DNA from: Macrostomum lignano
Lineage: Eukaryota
Direction: 5' to 3'
Assembly: GCA_002269645.1 (NCBI GenBank)
Contig: NIVC01000157.1
Span: 1-64,000, forward strand
DNA length: 64,000 nucleotides
Shown: positions 34,441-64,000 of the stretch, piece by piece
Numbering within the stretch: the first letter of the stretch is position 1
How the letters are laid out: each line of letters begins with the position of its first letter
Notes under the pieces: generated by a model
The model's database searches: none
The model's input: only the letters and a program-made list of their open reading frames with translations
Told to the model about the DNA's origin: nothing
Made by a program: the position numbers and the translations under genes

Positions 34441-37400
34441 TCAGACAGTTCTCAAATCAAAGATCTGCTTCTGACGTTTCTTCTGCCTCTTCGACTTGGC
34501 CCGCCCGACGCCAGAGCCATCGGCAGCCTCGGCAGCCGGCGCATCCGGCTGCTGCTCGGCCGCCATGGACTGTAAAATCCTCAGAGCTGCCAAGTTGAAG
34601 CCGAGCAAATCGGTCAGGCCGTTGCCGCAGGCAGTCAGGCGGCTCTGAAACTTGGCCGCGGTGTCGCCAGCGGACACGGCCAGGCAGGGAAAGTGGAAGC
34701 TCAGCAGCAGGCAGGCGCAGCGGCAGACCCGCTCGGGCTGCAGTCCGCCAGCCGCCAGCGAGTCCAGAGCGGCAAGCAGGCGCTTGGCGTGCACAGCAGG
34801 CAGGGCTGAGATGGCCTGCTCAAGCTCGTGCAGAGGCTGCCGGCCCAGCCAGCTGCCCAGCGACTCCAGCGGCTTGTTGCTGCCGCCGCTGACACCGGCT
34901 GATGATGGCTTCGTCTCCCTGTCGGTGTCCGTCTCCCAGCGCTGAAGGGACAGAGTGGGATAGAATCTAGTCATTTATTGTGCTCTGCGTGTGTGGCAAC
35001 TCGGGAGACTGGGCCCAGCAAATGACAGAATGACCATACAGTGACACAATGACCATACAGTGACAGAATGACCATACAGTGACAGAATGACAATACAGTG
35101 ACAGAATGACCATGCAGTGACACAATCACCATAGTGACAGAATGACCATACAGTGACACAACAGCCACAGTGACAGAATGACCACAGTGACACAACAGCC
35201 ACAGTGACACAATGACCAGTGACCACAGTGACACAACGGCCACAGTGTCACAACGGCCACAATGACACAATGACCACAGTGACACAATGACCAGTGACCA
35301 CAGTGACACAACAGCCACAGTGACACAATGACCAGTGACCACAGTGACACAACGGCCACAGTGACACAACGGCCACAGTGACACAATGACCACAGTGACA
35401 CAATGACCAGTGACCACAGTGACACAACGGCCGCAGTGACAAAACGGCCACAATGACACAATGACCACAGTGACACAATGACCAGTGACCACAGTGACAC
35501 AACAGCCACAGTGACACAACGGCCACAGTGACACAACGGCCACCGTGACACAATGACCAGTGACCACAGTGACACAACAGCCACAGTGACACAACGGCCA
35601 CAGTGACACAACAGCCACAGTGACACAACGGCCACAGTGACACAACGGCCACAGTGACACAACGGCCACAGTGACACAACGGCCACAGTGACACAATGAC
35701 TAGTGACCACAGTGACACAACGGCCACAGTGACACAATGACCACAGTGACACAACGGCCACAGTGACACAATGATCAGTGACCACAGTGACACAACGGCC
35801 ACAGTGACAAACGGCCACAATGACACAATGACCACAGTGATACAATGACCAGTGACCACAGTGACACAACAGCCACAGTGACACAATGACCAGTGACCAC
35901 AGTGACACAACAGCCACAATGACCAGTGACCACAGTGACACAACAGCCACAATGACAGGCAGAGCACCAAGGCAATGCAGTCTGCAGCAGTCGCAGCCGT
36001 ACCTCCAGAGCAGCCAGCAACGCCTCGGCGCCGCGCACAGACTGCAGGCTCAGGCGGGACACCAGACCGCTAGCTGCGCTGTCAGTGGCCTCAGCCTGCT
36101 GCTCGGCCATCTCCTCCTCAAACTGAGCATCCTTCTCCAACTCGCGCTGCTCCTCAAGCACCAGCGGCTCGTCAGTTCTCTGCCAGGTGCGCACGGAGCC
36201 GTCCTGATCTACGCTAGCAAAGTAGTCCCCGGTGGGGGCAACTGCCACACAGGCCACGGCGGACTGATGGCCGTGCAGCGCTGCGACTCTGCGGAACTTG
36301 CCGGCGTCCCACAGTCGCAGACACTTGTCGGCGCCGCAGCTCACCAGCAGGCGCGATGATGACGACGAATCGGCGCCTTCGAAACCTTGTGGCATGGGGA
36401 CGAACGCCAGATCGGCAATGGCCAGGTCGTGACCGCGGAGAATCTTCTGACAGTCGCCGAACTGCAGGCCCCACAGGCGGATGGTGCGGTCGCCGGACCC
36501 GCTGGCCAGCAGGGAGGAGTCGGAGCTGGCCGCCAGGGCCGAGGCCGGCTGCGAGTGGCCGTGCAGGTGCAGGAACTGGCGCACTGAGTCGGTGAACAGA
36601 ACCCGGATGGAGTTGTCCAGCAGGCCGCAACACAGCAGGCGCGCATCCGGGGTGCTGCACACCGAGGCCAGGCAATCGTCCAGAGCGATGCTCCTGGCTA
36701 GCAGGAGGCCCAGGCGGCTGCTGAGACCGCCTTGAGCTGCCGCCCTGCTGATCTCGTAGCGCCACTGCATCGCCTGCCGCTCGCCTGAGCTGCCGCTGAT
36801 GAGGCCGCTGGAGTCGCTGAGCTGGCGCAGGCAGGTCACCGGGCCGCTGTGCGCCTGACCATCGGGTTGGTGGTTGGGGGCCTCGCTGCGTGATTTTTCT
36901 ATAAGTAGTAGCCTTAGCTGAATGCGCTACTTTGAGTAGAAATATACACATTTTACATGGATAAAGCTGTCAAGCAGAGAATACTGTTATCATTCTTTCA
37001 AAACTACACAAGTACGTCGGGCTCTGGGGAGGCTGGCCCAGCAACTGAGGATCTGGGAGGCTGGCCTAGCAACTGAGGATCTGGGAGGCTGGTGGCCCAG
37101 CAATTGAGGATCTGGGAGGCTGGTGGCCCAGCAACTGAGGATCTGAGAGCTTGGCCCAGCAGTTGAGGATCTGAGAGGCTGGTGGCCCAGCAATTGAGGA
37201 TCTGGGAGGCTGGCCAAGGAACTGAGGATCTGGGAGGCTGGTGGCCCAGCAACTGAGGATCTGGGAGGCTGGTGGCCCAGCAACTGAGGATCTGGGAGGC
37301 TGGTGGCCCAGCAACTGAGGATCTGGGAGGCTGGCCTAGCAACTGAGGATCTGGGAGGCTGGTGGCCCAGCAACTGAGGATCTGGGAGGCTGGTGGCCCG

Positions 37401-40400
37401 GCAACTGAGGATCTGAGAGCTTGGCCCAGCAGTTGAGGATCTGGGAGGCTGGTGGCCCAGCAACTGAGGATCTGAGAGCTTGGCCCAGCAGTTAAGGATC
37501 TGGGAGGCTGGTGGCCCAGCAACTGTGGATCTGGGAGGCTGGTGGCCCAGCAATTAAGGATCTGGGAAGCTGGTGGCCCAGCAACTGAGGATCTGGGAGG
37601 CTGGTGGCCCAGCAACTGGGGATCTGGGAGGCTGGCACAGCAACTGAGGATCTGGGAGGCTGGCACAGCAACTGAGGATCTGGGAGGCTGGCACAGCAAC
37701 TGAGGATCTGGGAGGCTGGCCAAGGAACTGAGGATCTGGGAGGCTGGTGGCCCAGCAACTGAGGATCTGGGAGGCTGGTGGCCCAGCAACTGAGGATCTG
37801 GGAGGCTGGTGGCCCAGCAACTGAGGATCTGGGAGGCTGGTGGCCCAGCAACTGAGGATCTGGGAGGCTGGTGGCCCAGCAACTGAGGATCTGGGAGGCT
37901 GGCCCAGCAACTGTGGATCTGGGAGGCTGGTAGCCTAGCAACTGAGGATCTGGGAGGCTGGCCCAGCAACTGAGGATCTGGGAGGCTGGTGGCCCAGCAA
38001 CTGGGGATCTGGGAGGCTGGCCCAGCAACTGAGGATCTGGGAGGCTGGCACAGCAACTGAGGATCTGGGAGGCTGGGAGGCAACTGAGGATCTGGGAGGC
38101 TAGGAGGCAACTGAGGATCTGGGAGGCTGGCCTGGCAATTGAGGATCTGGGAGGCTGGTGGCCCAGCAACTGAGGATCTGGGAGGCTGGTAGCCCAGCAA
38201 CTGAGGATCTGGGAGGCTGGCCCAGCAACTGTGGATCTGGGAGGCTGGCCAGGCAACTAGGGATCTGGGAGGCTGGCACAGCAACTGAGGATCTGGGAGG
38301 CTGGCACAGCAACTGAGGATCTGGGAGGCTGGCCCAGCAACTGAGGATCTGGGAGGCTGGTGGCCCAGCAACTGGGGATCTGGGAGGCTAGCACAGCAAC
38401 TGAGGATCTGGGAGGCTGGCACAGCAACTGAGGATCTGGGAGGCTGGCCCAGCAACTGAGGATCTGGGAGGCTGGCCCAGCAACTGTGGATCTGGGAGGC
38501 TGGTGGCCCAGCAACTGAGGATCTGGGAGGCTGGTGGCCCAGCAACTGAGGATCTGGGAGGCTGGTGGCCCAGCAATTAAGGATCTGGGAGGCTGGTGGC
38601 CCAGCAACTGGGGATCTGGGAGGCTGGCACAGCAACTGAGGATCTGGGAGGCTGGCACAGCAACTGAGGATCTGGGAGGCTGGCACAGCAACTGAGGATC
38701 TGGGAGGCTGGCCAAGGAACTGAGGATCTGGGAGGCTGGTGGCCCAGCAACTGAGGATCTGGGAGACTGGTGGCCCAGCAACTGAGGATCTGGGAGGCTG
38801 GTGGCCCAGCAACTGAGGATCTGGGAGGCTGGTGGCCCAGCAACTGAGGATCTGAGAGCTTGGCCCAGCAGTTGAGGATCTGAGAGGCTGGTGGCCCAGC
38901 AATTGAGGATCTGGGAGGCTGGCCAAGGAACTGAGGATCTGGGAGGCTGGTGGCCCAGCAACTGAGGATCTGGGAGGCTGGTGGCCCAGCAACTGGGGAT
39001 CTGGGAGGCTGGTACAGCAACTGAGGATCTGGGAGGCTGGCACAGCAACTGAGGATCTGGGAGGCTGGTGGCCCAGCAACTGGGGATCTGGGAGGCTGGT
39101 GGCCCAGCAACTGGGGATCTGGGAGGCTGGCACAGCAACTGAGGATCTGGGAGGCTGGTAGCCCAGCAACTGACGATCTGGGAGGCTGGTGGCCCAGCAA
39201 CTGAGGATCTGAGAGCTTGGCCCAGCAGTTGAGGATCTGGGAGGCTGGGAGGCAACTGAGGATCTGGGAGGCTGGGAGGCAACTGAGGATCTGGAAGGCT
39301 GGCCAGGCAACTGAGCATCTCAGGCAATAACTCAATGGAGCTCCAAACCAACCTGCAGCTGCTCAGCCACCCGGCCGTCGCTGAGGTCGCAGAGTAGCAG
39401 GCGGCCATCGGCGGTGCCGACGGCGGCGTACCGGTCGCCAGGCAAAAACACGCAGCGGGTCATCTGGCCGCCACCTGATCCGCTTTGATCTTCGCCGCCA
39501 CTGGAACTGGGGCAGGCGATGGTGAGCAGACAGGCAAGGCTGGAGAACCGCCACAGTTTCAGCTGACCGGCACTCAGCGTCATCACCGCCAGGCCATCGG
39601 AGCTGACGGTCGCCCATCGGACTGGGCCTTCGTGCCCATGGCTGATCTTTGAACCGAGCGAGTCCACCGTGACCGCCCCGTCCGAGTAGCTGAGACGGTA
39701 GGACAGGATCTGGAACATGGGATGTTAAAGCATTGTGGGATCTGGAAAAAATGGGGATCTGGGAGGTCAAGACACTGTGGGGATCTGGGAGGTCAATGCA
39801 TTGTGGGGATCTGGGAGGTCAATGCATTGTGGAGATCTGGGAGGTCAATGCATTGTGGGGATCTGGGAGGTCAATGCATTGTGGGGATCTGGGAGGTCAA
39901 TGCATTGTGGGGATCTGGGAGGTCAATGCATTGTGGGGATCTGGGAGGTCAATGCATTGTGGGGATCTGGGAGGTCAATGCATTGTGGGGATCTGGGAGG
40001 TCAATGCATTGTGGGGATCTGGGAGGTCAAGACACTGTGGGGATCTGGGAGGTCAATGCATTGTGGGGATCTGGGAGGTCAATGCATTGTGGGGATCTGG
40101 GAGGTCAATGCATTGTGGGGATCTGGGAGATCAATGCATTGTGGGGATCTGGGAGGTCAATGCATTGTGGAGATCTGGGAGGACGATGCATTGTGGGGAT
40201 CTGGGAGGACAATGGTAAGGTACATCAACACTTCCTGACTTCCCCACGGGAGCAAAGATAGAACACCTGTAAAAGTACATATACAACAAGCATCTAACCG
40301 AGTTATTGGCCAAGCTGACAAAGCACTCAAAGCGCAGCGCCTCAACCTGCCGATGGCTTCCTTGAGCGGCATCCACGGCTGCCTCATCGATGGCTCCAGA

Positions 40401-43090
40401 GGCTGGTTGCTCGGCCAGCCGCACGGGGCCAAGAGCAGGCCACCTGAGCTTGGCCGGAAACCCGGTCAGCATGCCGGCCGGTTTGAGCAGATCCTCAGCC
40501 GCCAGCCTGCTCGGCCGGTCCGCACCGGCTTTTCTAGCCGCCTTCCTTTGACGCTGCTTCAGTCGGGTGCGCTGCTCGGCTGAGCTGGGGCAGGCGAACC
40601 ATTCGAGACCGCGGGTGCCCGAGGCCACGCACAGCAGGCGGCCATCGGCTGTGGCGGCAAGCGAGTGCGTGCGGCCTTTGGTTGCCTTGGCAACGCTGCC
40701 TAGGAACTCAGCGGCCAGGGCATCCTGGAGTTTCAGGTGGATTTCGGGGAGATATTTGAGGTGGGATTTGGGAAGATTTCGGATGAGATTGGGGAGATTT
40801 TTAAATTGGATTTGAGAAAATATTTGATGGGATTTCAGGAAAATATTTGATAGGATTTGGGGAGATTTTGAATGGGATTTAGAGAGATTGTTGAATGGGA
40901 CTTGGGGAGTTTGTTGAATGGGATTTAGGGAAATATTTGATGGGATTTGGGAAAATAATTGATGGGATTTGGGGAGATTGCTGGGTGGGATTTGGGAGAT
41001 TGTTAAATGGGATTTGGGGAGATTGTTAGATGGGATTTTGGGGAGATTGTTGAATGGGATTTGGGGAAATATTTGATGGGCTTTGGGGAGATTGTTGGGT
41101 GGGATTTAGGAGATTGTTGGATGGAATTTGAAGAATGATTTGAAGAATATTTTGAAAAATGAAACCTCGAGATCGGCTGGCTGCAGCAGGGCCAGCTGCT
41201 CAGCCTCCTTAGCTGCATCAGTCTGAGCTCTCTTAGCCTCAGGTGCGCGATCGTCTTGAACTGAGAGGCGCCACAGGCGCAGCTGATTGTCGCACGAGCC
41301 CGTCACCAGGAGGTCCCTGGCGTCGCCAATCAAAGCGAAGTCCCAGATTTCGCCCGGGTGACCCGTCAGGGTTTTGAAGCAGACGCGTATGTCCAGATTC
41401 CAGAATTTCATGAGGCCGTCTTTGGAGGCGCTGAGCAGGCAGTTGCTCCACTGCTCCAGGAACTCTACCTGGTGCGGGAAATTATTGCGGAATTGTATCC
41501 GGGGGAAAGGAGTAAGAATAATTATGAGGATCCTGGCTCTGGATCCGGGAGGCTGGCCAAGCAACTGAGGATCCGGGAGGCTGGCCAAGCAACTGGGGAT
41601 CTGGGAGGCTGGCCAAGCAACTGGGGATCTTGGAGGCTGGCCCAGCAACTAAGGATTTTGGAGGCTGGCCCAGCAACTGGGGATCTGGGAGGCTGGCCCA
41701 GTAACTAGGGATCTGGGAGGCTGGCCCAGCAACTGGGGATCTGGGAGGCTGGCCCAGCAACTGAGGATCTGGGACGCTGGCCAAGCAACTGAGGATCTGA
41801 AAGGCTGGCCCAGCAACTTGGGATCTGGGAGGCTGGCCCAGAAACTGGGGATCTGGGAGGCTGGCCAAGCAACTGGGGATCTTGGAGGCTGGCGGCAGTG
41901 GTTACGGGTGAAGAAAAACCAGGACCCCAACAAGCCGCACCTTGGTGACGGCATTGGAGTGGCCCTGCAGGCGGAAGCCGCTCTCCCCCTCGATGCGCAG
42001 CACTGTGACGTCAGAGTCCATGCCGCCAGCGGCTAGCAGAGACCCGTCAGCGTTGAAAGCCATTGAAGACACTGCGTTCTTGTGGCCGCAAAACTTCACC
42101 AGCAGCTCGCCTGCAGTGCACAGGGTGGAAATTCTGTAGCTGATCATTTAGAAAACACACTGAAATCCGCTCCCTACCCTCACAAAACACACTGAAATCC
42201 GCTCCCTACCCTCACAAAACACACTGAAATCCGCTCCCTACCCTCACAAAACACACTGAAATCCGCTCCCTACACTCACAAAACACACTGAAATCCGCTC
42301 CCTACCCTCACAAAACACACTGAAATCCGCTCCCTACCCTCACAAAACACACTGAAATCCGCTCCCTACCCTCACAAAACACACTGAAATCCGCTCCCTA
42401 CACTCACAAAACACACTGAAATCCGCTCCCTACCCTCACAAAACACACTGAAATCCGCTCCCTACCCTCACAAAACACACTGAAATCCGCTCCCTACACT
42501 CACAAAACACACTGAAATCCGCTCCCTACCCTCACAAAACACACTGAAATCCGCTCCCTACCCTCACAAAACACACTGAAATCCGCTCCCTACCCTTACA
42601 AAACACACTGAAATCCGCTCCCTACCCTCACAAAACACACTGAAATCCGCTCCCTACCCTCACAAAACACACTGAAATCCGCTCCCCACCCTCACAAAAC
42701 ACACTGAAATCCGCTCCCCACCATCAAACACAGTAAAACCCGCTCACCTGTCCACAGGTTGTACAGCCGAATCCAGCCATCCGAGTAGCCAACAGCGAGC
42801 ACCGAGGCGCCAGCATGCCAGGCCAGGCGCGCCACAACGGCGCCGGCGCGCAGTCTCGGCCGCGCGGCCTCTTCGTCGGCGAAATCATCGTCGTCTTCTT
42901 CGCGAAATTTGCGAGCAGCCTGGCCGGTGACGGGGTTCCAGGCGATGGCGTCCTCAGCAGCGCCGGCCAGCACCAGAGGGCGGTGCCGCGTCACCGGGTC
43001 GGACACGGCCAGGATGTTGCAGCGAGGCGAAGCGGTCAGACCGAACCGGGAGTCGGCGGTGTACCGGGGGTACTCGTGGGTGACGGGCAT
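34441..43090 (-). CDS. WDR3: WD repeat-containing protein 3 / U3 snoRNP component Utp12 (Dip2), 983 aa
   Basis: 7 exons: 43090-42748, 42110-41941, 41468-41166, 40724-40299, 39709-39353, 36854-36003 and 34941-34441. Total 2952 nt, frame continuous, GT-AG. Motifs MPVTHEYPRY...FGL, LLSASKDGLMKFWNLD, SGSGDRTIRLWGLQFGDCQK, WQRTDEPLVLEEQRELE and a C-terminal Utp12 domain with LLGFNLAAL. Confidence 0.93.
35000..35955 (+). repeat. About 17-bp degenerate minisatellite (GTGACACAA[TGA/CGG]CCACA)n, WDR3 intron 6
   Basis: Direct reading of the sequence. Confidence 0.93.
37020..39310 (-). repeat. 28/31-bp CCAGCCTCCCAGATCCTCAGTTGCT minisatellite, WDR3 intron 5
   Basis: About 75 copies; reverse complement of the arrays at 19-21 kb. 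Confidence 0.97.
39750..40210 (-). repeat. 26-bp minisatellite (plus-strand unit TGTGGGGATCTGGGAGGTCAATGCAT), WDR3 intron 4
   Basis: About 17 copies sharing the GGATCTGGGAGG core with the 28/31-bp family. Confidence 0.95.
40735..41160 (-). repeat. Degenerate GGGATTTGGGGAGATTGTTGAAT-like repeat, WDR3 intron 3
   Basis: Imperfect tandem units. Confidence 0.75.
41535..41895 (-). repeat. 28-bp minisatellite of the CCAGCCTCCCAGATCC family, WDR3 intron 2
   Basis: About 12 copies. Confidence 0.93.
42152..42725 (+). repeat. 32-bp minisatellite (CCTCACAAAACACACTGAAATCCGCTCCCTAC)n, WDR3 intron 1
   Basis: About 18 copies filling nearly the whole intron. Confidence 0.97.
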
Positions 43091-58789: not shown

Positions 58790-61700
58790 ATGGCATCAAA
58801 ACGCCCAGCCGCTGAAGCCGCCATTTCAGCCTTGTGGGGGCAGGCTGGCCCCTCCAGGCAGCAACCACAGCATCAGCCTCTGCCCGCAAAGAGGGGACGA
58901 CAGCTAGGTGAGTCTTGCAAGTCTGTGTAAAAATTTCTTTTTCATCTTTATCTTTTACGAAACTCGGGATTATTGAATAATATAGGGCTGTTCTCTGTAA
59001 AAACTGTTTTTTTCATCTTTGGCATTCATTTGGCTTCGCAAACTCAAAATAAGGCTTATTGAAATAATAGGAGGCCCCGCTGTAAAACTGCTTTTCACCG
59101 GCAGTGATAAAATCAACCCCGATTTTTGGGCTCAGCATGATGATGTAATCACCGCGGTGGCAGGTATTCTAGCGGCGCAGTGATAAAATCAACCCCTGAT
59201 TTCGGGCATGATGATGTAATCACCGCTGCAATTGACAGTAGGGGTTTTGGCAGCAATAAAACTTGGCTGCTACAGTGAGGGTTATTAATCAGACAGTTTT
59301 AAAATCCAAAAGCGGCCGCGCGGTATTGTTGCTAGGTGTCAAGGAGGCACAATGGAGACACGTGCTGATAGGGGTTTTACAATGTCTGCTGCAGCAGGAT
59401 CAGTGTTATCAGGGTCATCAATCAAACATTTTTGACAGCCTAAAATTCGAAGCGGGGGTCAATCAACCCCACATTTCTTTTGTTGCTACGTGTCGGAACG
59501 TGTCGAGTTGGGGTTTTTACAACTCGCCGATTTTCGTTGCTTGGGGTGGGGCGATAAAATTGCTGCTGCTGCAGGCAATCAATCAAAACTTTTTGACAGT
59601 TGTAAAATTCCAAGCGGTCAGAATTTTAGTCACCATGCGCATTTTTATTGCAGATTTGGCTCAATTTCAACCCCCGCCCCAGCCCGACACTGTCGAAGGT
59701 GATGGTAAGGAGTTGATTTCATGAGTCATACACCCACCGCCTCTCGCAATTCTAATTTCAAAACCCTCCATTTTTCAGGCTTCATTGCGCGTCTTGGCGG
59801 GGCGAAAGCCCTGCCAAAATTTAAGGCAAAAGGCTACGAATATGTAGTGACATTCACCGCAGCAGCAGATACTACCGATATTCGTTCCACGTTTGAGGGC
59901 ATTATTTCTGTGCTCTGCTCAGATTTGCAAGCCGACGATTTCATCTCGGCCAAACTAACGGCCGACAACATGCTGCTCACGGTTAATGTACCGCCAGTCC
60001 GCCGCAGCCGCTTCACTGCAGAGCTGATATTTAAACATATCAACAAGGTTCTGCAGTCGGACTCCAGTGTCTTGGGCAACAACTTTAAATTGTTTTTGCT
60101 CAAGGCCTGGGTCCCGCGGGGCGGCTGCGGCAGCCTTTCGGGGTTGATGTGCTCCCCCAACTGCTCGCAGTCCTGAACGCCCAGTCACCCGGCCGGGATT
60201 TCGGCGCCCGCGTGTACAGTGCCGAGGAGGGCAATACGTGCGTGTACGCCCTACCCGGCCGCGAAGTGCTGAATCTGCACCTAATTGGCGAGCACTTTAA
60301 CGCTGTTTGCAAAGTGCCGCCATTTTTCGGGGCCCGCCGCTATTGCGACCGCTGCCAGCAGCCGTACGACTGCGTGTCTGGAGGGCACAAATGCGCCAAC
60401 ACCTGCCCTCAATGCAAAGTGCCCGGCTCCAATTGCAAGAGCCTGCGGTGCGACTACAAGCGCTGCGCTGATTGTGGCCTCAAGTGCTACAATCCGCAGT
60501 GTTTTGAGAACCACCGCCGAAAGAACCGGGCCGGCAGGTCTCGCTGCGACTCTGTCCGAGTCTGCCCCAAATGCGGATATTTGGAGGAGATGAAAGTTGG
60601 GCAAAGGGAGCCGGAGCACAAGTGCGGCCACATCAAATGCCCACTGTGTAAACAGTATGATGAGGCCGGCTCGCATTTGTGCTTCGTCAAGGCTCCCAAA
60701 GTGAAAGCATCGACTATGCCGTACGTGTTTTACGATACGGAAACATACACGGACGAGGAGAAGCAGCATCACGTGCATCTGGTGACTGCCGTCACGTGCT
60801 GCGAGACCTGCTCCGGCCGGGCGTTTCCGCGCGAGACTTGCCGCCTCTGCAATGGCCTGCATAGCGCCGCCAATTGTCTGACTGGCTGCGATCTGGGGGA
60901 GGAATTCTCCAATTGCGTCAGCCACTCAGACTGCGCCTGCCAAATGGCCGATTTTGTGTCTGTGGGCCCGGCCTCGCTGAATGCGTTTTTCGCCTGGCTG
61001 AGCACCACATTCCGAGGCGGCGCCATTGTTGTAGCGCACAATGCATCAGGCTACGATTCGTTCCTACTGCTTGGCGCTCTACTCAACGGCCTGGCCAAGA
61101 AGCGGCCACAAGTACTGTTCCAGGGCAGCCGGCTAATGAGCATGACGGTTGACAAATTGGTATTCAAAGATTCGTTAAATTTTATACCAATCCCGCTTGC
61201 GCAATTCCCAAAAGCGCTGGGGCTCGCTGACACAAAGCTGGCCAAGGGTACGTTTCCCCACGAGTTTAACAAGCCGGCTAATTGGAACTACGTGGGCTCC
61301 TACCCGGCTATTGAATATTATGGCGGCAAAGCAAACAAGGACTATGACTCAATCTGTGCTTGGCTAGCCTCGCGACAGGGCGAGTTGTTCAACTTTAATC
61401 GGGAATATCTCGATTATTGTTTGAGCGACACAGTCCTGCTTCGCGAGGGCTGTATCAAGTACAGGGCAATAATTGGAGACATTTGCGACGGCCTGGAACC
61501 ATTTGTACAGGCCAATACGATTGCCAGTTTGGCAATGGCCGTTTTCACCACCCGGTTTATGGAGCCCAACTCGGTCGGCGTGATTGCCCGGCAGGCCGAC
61601 CAGCAGTCATTTAAGGCGCGCAAGTGGCTGACTTATTTGAATGCCACCGAATTTGGCGGGCGGCTGCGCACCTGCGACTCGACTGGCGGCGAGGCTGTCA

Positions 61701-63552
61701 TTCTCGGCCGCAAGGTGGACGGCTTCGATGAGGCCAGCAACACTGTTTTGCAGTTTCATGGCTGTTTCTACCATGGCTGCGAGCAGTGTATGCCTGATCA
61801 GGATGTCGTCCACCCACTCAAACGGCAGCCTCTGAGCCATATCCGCCACGAGACTGAGTGGTTCACTCGCGAGTTGGAGCGGCACAATTACAGTGTTCGA
61901 GTCATTTGGGAGCACGAATACGACACTGTATTGGCATCGCATGCCGACTTTATCGCCGCAACTGCCCATCTGCGCGCTCCACTCAAGATGGAAGATGCGC
62001 TCTACGGCGGCCGCGTAGAGTGCTTTATCCCGCATGCTGTGGCCAGCGAGACTGAGACTCTCAAATATCGGGATGTGGTGAGTAGTGATACTACTAATAT
62101 AGTAGAATATTTTGCAAAAAAATACAGTTTATGAAAAAATAATGCTTTATTTCAACTGGCAGGTCTCTCTGTACCCGACGGTGCAGTCGAAAGACCCGTA
62201 CCCGATTGGCCACCCGGTGCAACATCCGACGCCGCAAGTGCTAGATTCTGACGCGCTGGCTAGTTACTTTGGTATTGCCAAGGTGACTGTGTTGCCGCCG
62301 TCAAATTTGCACATTCCGCTGCTGCCGTACAGAGTGCAAAAGAAGCTCTTTTTTGGGCTTTGCCGCACCTGTATGGAGCAGCAGTGCGGCGAGTGCTGCG
62401 ACCACTCAGACGAGCAGCGGGCACTGACTGGTACCTGGGCCACGCCAGAGCTGCGGAAGGCCTTCCAGTTGGGCTACCGGCTGCAGGTGGTGCACGCGCT
62501 GGCCTACTGGACAGAGCAGCGGACGGGCCTGTTCGGTGACTATGTCAGCACCTTCCTCAAGCTGAAGGCCGAATCGAGCGGCTCCCCTGGCATGTCGGAT
62601 GAGGACAAGGCCGCCTACATTGCCGATTTCTTTGCAAAGGAGGGCGTCACGCTGGACAAGGTCGAGCCCAACCCAGGACTTCGCTTTGTAGCGAAAATCT
62701 TTTTGAATTCGTAAGTATTCATAAATTTTGTTTTTTAAATGATTTTCTTCTACTATCAGTAGCACTTCCTTTCACAACACACAGGCTCTGGGGCAAATTT
62801 TGTCAGCGTGACGACCTGACATCGACCGAAATAGTATCCAGCTACGAGGACTGGCTCGCCCGGCTGACCGACCCCAACCTCAAAGTCAAGGCCTGCGAAC
62901 CGGTTGGCAGCGAGTTTATGCTGCTAGAGTACCGGCACCGCTATTTTAATCAGCGGCCGTTCCGGTACTCCAACGTACCGATCGGGGTCTTTACGACCAC
63001 GCAGGCCCGGCTGCGCCTGTACGAGGCATTGGAGGGGCTCGGCGAACGGGCCATTTACTGCGGCACTGACTCGTAAGTATTGCATTGGGAAAATTCTTTT
63101 AGAATTGATTACATGTAAATTAGCAAGTTGGCAATTATCTCGTTTTCTCTCCCCCACACAGGGTCGTTTACCGGCATTCCGAGGGCCAATGGGAGCCGCC
63201 CCATGGCACGAGCCTCGGAATGTGGACCGATGAGGTGCCCGCAGGCAGCCGGATGACCGACTTTGTAAGTGGGGGGCCCAAGCTCTACACTTACATTGTC
63301 GAGGATGCGGCCGGTGTCCGGAGTCAGGTCCTGAAGTGCAAGGGCATCCGCCTGACTCCAGAGATTCGGGAGCGCAGCGATGAATTGCGCAGTGCCCTAC
63401 TACACGGCGGCTCCCTGCAGCTGCCGCAGCTTCAGTTTAGGCGCGACAAGGCGTCTTGTACCATACACACTGTTAGTATGGACAAGACGTTTCAGCGCGT
63501 CCTGACGAAGCGCGTGTACGGGGCCTGCAGCAGGCCTTATGGTTATAAATAA
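58790..63552 (+). CDS. polB: Protein-primed family-B DNA polymerase (Polinton type), about 1210 aa, 5 exons, one frameshift near 60125-60148
   Basis: Exons 58790-58907, 59779-62077, 62163-62710, 62785-63072 and 63162-63552 with GTGAGT/GTAAGT donors and YAG acceptors. Motifs: ExoI FYDTET, ExoII AHNASGYD, FKDS, KGTFPH, ExoIII YCLSD, Vsr-like FHGCFYHGC, YGGRVE, motif A YRDV^VSLYP, motif B KIFLNS^LWGK, motif C YCGTDS^VVY, GPKLY and KCKG. Confidence 0.93.
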
Positions 63553-64000
63553 TGTGGCCCTTGCTTAATAAATATCTTGTTAAATTTGACTGAGTAAAAT
63601 CTATTTATTGTTGTACATATTTTGCATGTTAAATTAATGAAGAGTTACATACTACTATACAAATGTACATAAAGCATTTTTGTATTGTATGCAGCGAAAT
63701 TGCCAATGTAAAAATCTATTGTACATATTTTGCGTGTCAAACTTGTTTAAAATCATTTATGAAAAGAAAATTAATGAAAAACAATTTAAAATTTTCTGTA
63801 TATTCTATTTGCTGGTAATGCTGTACATAAATTATTTCCTGTAATATGCTACTGATTTAATGTAAATATATCTTCATTGTAAATACTTATACATGATGTA
63901 CGCTACACGGTTAGTTGACTCATTTGGTAGTAGATGAGATTAGTAATTCTCGCCTCTGCGTACATGTAGTATTGTACATGTAATTTTGGTGCGCGCGCGC

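Follow-up and report, generated by a model that had tools for sequence, protein, structure and literature searches.

The window analysed here is a stretch of 64,000 nucleotides at the start of contig NIVC01000157.1 of Macrostomum lignano, and near its right end it carries a spliced gene for a Vsr-type protein-primed DNA polymerase (pPolB2) of a Polinton derivative. The element carrying the gene is 9,859 bp long (G000:C157:54556-64414) and is bounded by a 6-bp target-site duplication, of which the left hexamer (54550..54555, + strand) recurs identically after the right end (G000:C157:64415-64420). The left terminal inverted repeat (TIR; 54556..54964, + strand) measures about 410 bp, begins with ACTACG and has a 90% identical inverted match at C157:63960-64414. 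The inner end of the right TIR (63960..64000, - strand) falls in the window and the repeat continues to G000:C157:64414. These values lie within the ranges applied to such elements, 100-1500 bp for the TIR and 5-8 bp for the duplication. A 6-bp duplication was likewise found in 5/5 elements of the same family (family A) and in L068 of a second family (family B). Three further reading frames are located on the - strand: a dUTPase ORF (55210..55734; Pfam PF00692, E 1.6e-30), which is cargo present in only some copies, a low-complexity ORF from the ORF list with no Pfam match and no assigned function (56214..56939), and a PC4-like gene (57546..58352; Pfam PF02229, E 6.4e-6). The last is arranged divergently from the polymerase gene, shows no intron and resembles the ORFs for PC4 that the genome's autonomous Polintons carry. 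The whole element sits inside a further copy of the same family (53893-54555 and G000:C157:64415-91000), and the locus is a cluster of nested, inverted and truncated family copies.

The polymerase gene is read on the + strand and probably starts at 58790. The probable first coding exon (58790..58907), which is not among the joints found, was placed by its ATG, donor and frame and by a like layout in family B; a TATA-like box lies upstream of it at 58707-58714. Intron 1 (58908..59653, 746 nt, phase 1) was proposed from splice signals and frame. Exon 2 (59654..59704, 51 nt) encodes a peptide that occurs in the gene models P0001 and P0002, and intron 2 (59705..59778, 74 nt, phase 1) corresponds to a GT-AG joint seen in sequencing run X2 only. 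The long exon that follows (59779..62077; Pfam PF03175, E 8.4e-15) holds the N-terminal region, a Cys-rich region, the exonuclease, the Vsr-like block and the start of motif A. The remaining coding sequence consists of an exon from motif A to motif B (62163..62710; Pfam PF03175, E 5.1e-12), an exon from motif B to motif C (62785..63072) and the last coding exon (63162..63552), with AATAAA at 63567. The studied copy is broken: a conserved motif C position, within the motif B to motif C exon, is substituted, and comparison with other copies shows about 0.3 kb to be deleted near 60135, a loss that breaks the frame and took intron 3 with it. This intron lies at profile position 253 and is present in 8/11 family A copies. 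The gene family has six introns, three in the catalytic motifs and three in the variable N-terminal part, and not exactly three as the sequence-only reading had counted. The same reading had described the preceding 2.3-kb exon as free of introns, which holds for the studied copy, but only partly reflects the gene, because the deletion took out intron 3.

The PF03175 matches, together with grouping among pPolB2 homologues, identify the product as a protein-primed family B polymerase of the Polinton/Maverick type. The nearest protein matches are Macrostomum lignano gene models in UniRef. Two of these, P0001 and P0002, mis-splice the catalytic exons; both are without the end of motif A and one is without motif B. 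Identity to homologues, including cnidarian, echinoderm and mollusc proteins, was 33-41%, and no match to the polymerase was found by sequence among solved structures. The Vsr-like nuclease block inside the polymerase (61604..61963, + strand) gave blastp matches with E values of 2e-10 to 6e-18, including P0310 (adintovirus PolB) and P0314 and P0336 (JGI label: Vsr), and had no match in NCBIfam or another curated library. The Vsr-like domain sits between the exonuclease and motif A, and on account of this block the polymerase was placed with the Vsr-type pPolB2 outlined in 10.1101/2023.08.22.554363.

The sequence-only reading had located a spliceosomal intron in each of the three catalytic motifs, and these positions were confirmed. 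The motif A intron (62078..62162, + strand; 85 nt, GC 0.26) lies in phase 0 within YRDV^VSLYP. The motif B intron (62711..62784, + strand; 74 nt, GC 0.28) and the motif C intron (63073..63161, + strand; 89 nt, GC 0.35) are both in phase 2, within the Ser codon of the respective motif. All three have GTRAGT donors and CAG acceptors, and the GC content of the region overall is about 0.53, so the description of AT-rich introns with consensus donors was accurate. GT...AG ends, consensus donors and pyrimidine-rich acceptors are the features of U2-type introns, and canonical ends at all three introns were found in 14/16 copies. A match to a host minimal intron size of 76-92 nt was not borne out, since a crude scan gave a single host candidate of 79 nt. 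A purpose-written spliced aligner, run with a profile of 91 homologues from outside Macrostomum, recovered all three introns with no coordinates supplied, at profile positions 866 (motif A, phase 0), 1055 (motif B, phase 2) and 1151 (motif C, phase 2). An extra call at 60876 was GC-rich with a weak donor and was treated as false, and GC-rich calls at profile positions 443-505 in Macrostomum were dropped.

The host spliceosome removes the introns from motifs A, B and C. Contig joints skipping exactly the three introns were found in the public runs X1, X5 and X6, which belong to three studies (P1, P2 and P3), and joints for the motif A and C introns were found in run X2. These four runs are probably RNA; their library type was guessed, none being recorded as RNA. 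Contigs containing the introns are also present in X1 and X2 and may be pre-mRNA or DNA. The claim that splicing is real held up in the junction check to this extent.

The three highest conservation peaks of the profile, in windows of ±3 codons, coincide with motifs C, B and A, in homologues that are intronless or unannotated. The probability of finding at least three of six introns in windows this conserved was P = 0.0016. As the choice of the motifs was post hoc, independent cases were sought.

At least 43 DNA matches were found in the genome, among 40 scored of 121 candidates. All three motif introns were present in 16/16 copies compared, with indels concentrated in the introns, and in 13/13 copies of a second comparison; the family A comparisons leave out about 20 further family A copies. 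Family B is 67% identical to family A, the synonymous sites being saturated; its introns occupy the same three bases and are unrelated in sequence. Introns A and B were found in 18/18 family B loci and intron C in 17/18, the remaining locus ending before motif C. The motif introns predate the split of the two families, which in the tree form one clade on a long stem. The exons are under purifying selection, with dN/dS values of 0.09 for 11 family A copies and 0.07 for 13 family B copies. Searches with the terminus patterns of the families gave 118 and 222 matches, compared to 1 and 0 for controls. Intron A of family A starts with an inverted repeat, AGTAGT-N3-ACTACT, resembling Polinton termini, which may be due to chance. 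A decayed, intronless, Vsr-bearing pPolB2 copy unrelated to both families was also seen (L033, G000:C234:57207-58499). The descriptive part of the explanation, comprising the gene, its splicing, the element, the families and selection, is held with near certainty.

The carriers differ from the autonomous Polintons of the same genome. The latter are about 17 kb long where both ends were seen and have single-ORF polymerases, and four of them begin with AGTAGT, whereas the intron-bearing elements begin with ACTAC. The ACTAC termini (window 54556, L068:1200) are close to the reverse complement of the AGTAGT termini. Twenty-five elements, chosen mostly by length from the first 100 termini listed per family, were examined for gene content. 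No integrase match at E<0.05 was obtained in them by tblastn with the genome's own Polinton integrases as queries, a search that a divergent, finely spliced gene could escape. With the ORFs of six autonomous Polintons, no capsid, packaging ATPase or protease was matched in the 25 elements, and PC4 and dUTPase were the only matches. Pfam Pox_A32 gave no match in the genome and, as it also missed ATPases seen there later, says nothing either way. That integrase and capsid are not detectable had been missed by the earlier reading, as had the broken state of the copy and the recurrence of the introns in distant lineages. We infer that the elements replicate by strand displacement and borrow integrase in trans, the latter because of the 6-bp target duplication. 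The idea of a segmented virus, with a second 9.5-kb segment bearing integrase and capsid between the same termini, received no support among the 25 elements. The 11 polymerase-less elements among them were palindromic rearrangements or were without an integrase or capsid gene, and integrase-bearing elements that were inspected have other termini.

Eight polymerase-less elements of about 9.5 kb (L097, L099, L104, L106, L107, L108, L109 and L112) are giant palindromes of one arm and resemble copy-back defective genomes; they were picked by length and give no estimate of the share of such forms. Among the terminus pairs listed, element length clusters at 8-10.5 kb (17/35 in family A and 28/34 in family B), and none of the 34 family B pairs exceeds 9.9 kb. 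This clustering hints at a size limit despite the lack of a detected capsid gene. Immediately inward of the terminus, 19 bases (window 54564-54582) differ widely among elements, and by eye were identical at both ends in 29/35 listed family A pairs, which is consistent with one end being copied from the other when the element replicates by strand displacement. Inside one copy (L103:2596-5495) ORFs resemble a THAP/P-type transposase by eye, and an element copy on G000:C2286 contains a 1,558-aa frame, another possible mobile element.

A search with the exon from motif A to motif B returned 56 proteins. Two exon-sized proteins from other samples share the exact borders at 59-68% identity and group with families A and B, and several distant proteins of the 56 end inside motif B. 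For P0175-P0178, P0182, P0187 and P0189 only the protein was at hand; introns were deduced from the protein ends and these cases were kept outside the statistics. A metagenome scan with P0175 gave no locus, the DNA locus of P0181 was found (L117), and IMG/VR scans yielded nothing of use. The metagenomic sample comprised the best 80 of 367 related loci. Introns were accepted on donor, acceptor, GC drop and frame break, conservation not being used, and 38 calls were dropped. Accepted introns were found at 19 positions in 18 of these best 80 loci, and the other 62 were without one, in line with the expectation that relatives are mostly single ORFs. Introns in the motifs were 56-158 nt long and contained no gene; some of the intron-bearing loci adjoin integrase, ATPase or protease genes. 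The positions included 867.2 in motif A, 1055.2, 1057.1, 1057.2 and 1059.0 in motif B, where four different bases are used, and 1150.1 in motif C. Others lay in the Vsr FHG motif, where each of the three phases occurs, and in Exo II, Exo III, GGRT and GPKxY motifs. Loci with introns are scattered: they belong to about nine clades, interspersed with intronless relatives, and some separate clades have introns at an identical base. One well-supported clade contains a graded series, with intronless loci (L125, L144), loci with intron A only (L122, L123) and loci with introns A and B (L120, L124). The occurrence of introns in the same motifs of distant relatives at shifted bases suggests targeted gain or retention.

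Twenty-three events were read from the tree by hand, many deep nodes of which are weakly supported. Profile positions 870-1050 were excluded from the statistics because the loci had been ranked on an uninterrupted exon from motif A to motif B. Mean conservation at the 23 events was 0.711, compared to 0.475 for uniform and 0.479 for junction-weighted placement, and was not reached in any of 100,000 simulations. The bias towards the most conserved sites, proposed from the single locus, was in this way found across loci as well. It persisted when motifs A, B and C were left out (P ~0.0006) and when neighbouring sites were collapsed to 13 clusters (P = 0.000025), and the outcome was the same with two borderline calls included. 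Seven of the 23 events lie within six codons of motif B. Indel-intolerant sites, which make up 47% of all sites, hold 21/23 events, and the motif B cluster remained significant among indel-intolerant sites (P = 0.0001) and among conserved sites only (P = 0.001). A proto-splice junction bias was rejected as the cause since junction weighting left the conservation bias unchanged. Within the sample reached, the cross-lineage bias is statistically strong, and neither junction bias nor indel intolerance alone explains the recurrence.

No intron longer than 300 nt was found in the 80 loci, and none of 279 proteins had an in-frame insert of more than 60 aa beyond profile position 500, as an intein would produce; no nuclease-bearing intron or intein was seen on these grounds. 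Similarity among introns was absent in 21 pairs and not convincing in 406 AT-rich pairs (best z 4.0), even for the same base in different clades. An introner origin was rejected for want of shared sequence, the many near-identical introns at unrelated sites that define introners not being found in the 21 + 406 pairs. Vsr presence was likewise rejected as a predictor of introns, the Vsr core occurring at similar frequency in intronless (42/54) and intron-bearing (11/14) loci. Two motif introns (L169:771 and L181:2150) are made up mostly of short tandem repeats, a composition that recent filler DNA would have.

Among known systems, inteins of family B DNA polymerases also occupy, at sites I and II, what we take to be motifs A and B. 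PMC549080 locates the third intein site, pol-c, in motif C and assigns all three to the active site; written as YGD|TDS, pol-c is 8 nt before the Macrostomum motif C intron. Archaeal and Mimivirus PolB inteins (PMC549080; PMC2814812) are likewise inserted in active-site motifs, whereas the Macrostomum inserts are removed by RNA splicing and contain neither a protein-splicing domain nor a nuclease domain. [quoted passage not shown] Homing nucleases are reported from Polinton-like viruses (PMC12220804), for which collaborative homing is described as well (PMC12220804; PMC11296320). Mirusviruses have spliceosomal homing introns (shintrons) with genes for HNH, GIY-YIG or Vsr-like nucleases (PMC12768974). 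Shintrons are also site-preferring GT-AG introns in core genes of a nuclear virus-like element. In contrast, the introns here are 56-158 nt long in the motifs, without the nuclease gene that a shintron holds, and they target a polymerase in an animal host.

With Vsr-type Polintons/Mavericks (adintoviruses), as far as the excerpts of 10.1101/2023.08.22.554363 and PMC8502044 describe them, the Macrostomum element shares the PF03175 polymerase with its Vsr-like block, TIRs and a 6-bp duplication. It differs in its six spliceosomal introns, its length of about 9 kb compared to 13-25 kb, and the lack of a detected integrase, ATPase or capsid, and its ACTAC termini differ from those of the four AGTAGT elements noted above. 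A chlorovirus DNA polymerase intron (PMC7019647) is also a short host-type intron in a viral family B polymerase and is about as conserved as the exons, but it is a single intron in a giant-virus PolB, and the text seen does not state its placement relative to the motifs. Dinoflagellate Polinton-like introners (PMC12166617) and Ginger1 transposase introns (PMC2836005) are likewise introns within Polinton-like or integrase-type elements; introners form repeated families reported to be depleted from coding regions, whereas the introns here are unrelated to one another and concentrated in catalytic motifs. The excerpts of PMC8502044 and PMC6431247 contain nothing on polymerase introns, and in the literature covered (subscription journals, Repbase entries and supplements being outside its scope) nothing described introns that split the motifs of a Polinton polymerase, or Polintons of Macrostomum.

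The observation at the single locus is solid. Homing elements are marked by a preference for conserved sites, with the precedents given above, and for this reason nuclease-directed, homing-like intron gain followed by trapping is favoured, as a tentative explanation that may well prove wrong. Introns would enter where a nuclease cuts, much as homing elements do. A co-resident Polinton would supply a site-specific nuclease that cuts the DNA of a conserved motif, the nuclease being possibly a passenger of a lost spliceosomal homing intron, a free enzyme or one fused to the polymerase. An intron at the cut site would abolish the target and leave the protein unchanged; the allele would therefore be immune and spread. 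It would then be trapped, because a catalytic motif tolerates only exact loss. The five intronless Polinton polymerases tested in this genome all lack the Vsr block, which counts for nuclease-directed gain. Counting against it, no nuclease-bearing intron or intein turned up in the 80 loci and 279 proteins, intron sequences are dissimilar even at the same base, Vsr block and introns are unlinked within pPolB2, and half of the six introns in Macrostomum are placed in the N-terminal part, which is poorly conserved. A wider reading, possible but doubtful, is that Polinton polymerase motifs are recurrent base-level hot spots of intron gain driven by nuclease competition among co-resident elements. 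The short introns would be relics of homing nucleases or immunity marks against them, and the Macrostomum carriers would be polymerase-only, helper-dependent satellite Polintons capped near 10 kb.

The high share of events at indel-intolerant sites is predicted equally by a pure retention filter. Introns could be gained at any site, for instance when breaks are repaired with AT-rich filler, and imprecise deletion in a size-limited element could clear all but those in indel-intolerant motifs. The unrelated intron sequences, two of them simple tandem repeats, the absence of nuclease-bearing introns from the 80 loci and the upper length of 9.9 kb among the 34 listed family B pairs agree with such a filter. 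It does not account for the motif B cluster that persists within indel-intolerant or conserved sites, for the use of the same base by separate clades or for the three introns kept in the variable N-terminal part of both families, and retention alone is on balance unlikely. The repeated use of one base could instead go back to a small number of introns already present in early pPolB2, which then moved by intron sliding and were exactly lost in most lineages; neighbouring positions are only 1-5 nt apart, and the weak support of deep nodes leaves room for this. Exact loss would however be required in 62/80 loci, the graded series of intronless, A-only and A+B loci fits stepwise gain, and the location of the original introns in the motifs would be left unexplained. 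Shared ancestry of this kind is decidedly improbable.

In the P element, activity is limited to the germline through splicing, and a similar role in control is conceivable here, an unspliced product being inactive, or else introns could break small-RNA targets in nascent RNA and allow escape from silencing. In 9/11 family A copies intron A has a length of 81 or 87 nt; it can be read through in frame in many and has a divergence of 0.025 compared to 0.137 at synonymous sites, all of which fits regulation, as do the intron-containing contigs of X1 and X2 unless these are DNA. In family B, however, the length of intron A is in most cases no multiple of three and its divergence is higher (0.088), and an intron anywhere upstream would be equally effective; selection for splicing is an improbable cause. 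The tissue-specific control suggested by the sequence-only reading found no support in the contigs. An artefact, in which AT-rich insertions in dead copies or joints from intronless DNA copies mimic splicing, would find room in the guessed RNA status of the runs and in the 40 of 121 candidates scored. The exact GT-AG joints in three studies, the presence of introns in every copy examined and the purifying selection on the exons contradict it; this reading is already largely refuted and very improbable.

How spliceosomal introns are gained and how their sites are chosen is an open question. With about ten lineages of one gene, a strong site preference and repeats at the same base, Polinton polymerases offer a countable test system for targeted gain and biased retention. 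If nuclease-directed gain is true, a targeted route of spliceosomal intron gain is at work in animal genomes. A published survey of 7,897 genomes admitted only genes with a match of 650 aa, an ORF of 900 aa and an integrase linked to them, and these filters exclude intron-split, integrase-less polymerase genes; the suspicion that such genes are hidden from ORF-based searches was well founded. Filters on ORF length and integrase drop two sizeable families, with 118 and 222 terminus matches, in a model flatworm.

Elsewhere in the window, host genes were seen at 18058-18750 (+ strand; SURF2-like) and 35778-36926 (- strand; WDR3-like, WD40). Repetitive frames with weak pre-ATP-grasp matches occupy 37007-39459 (- strand), with a related repeat at 19170-21050 and 41540-41900.
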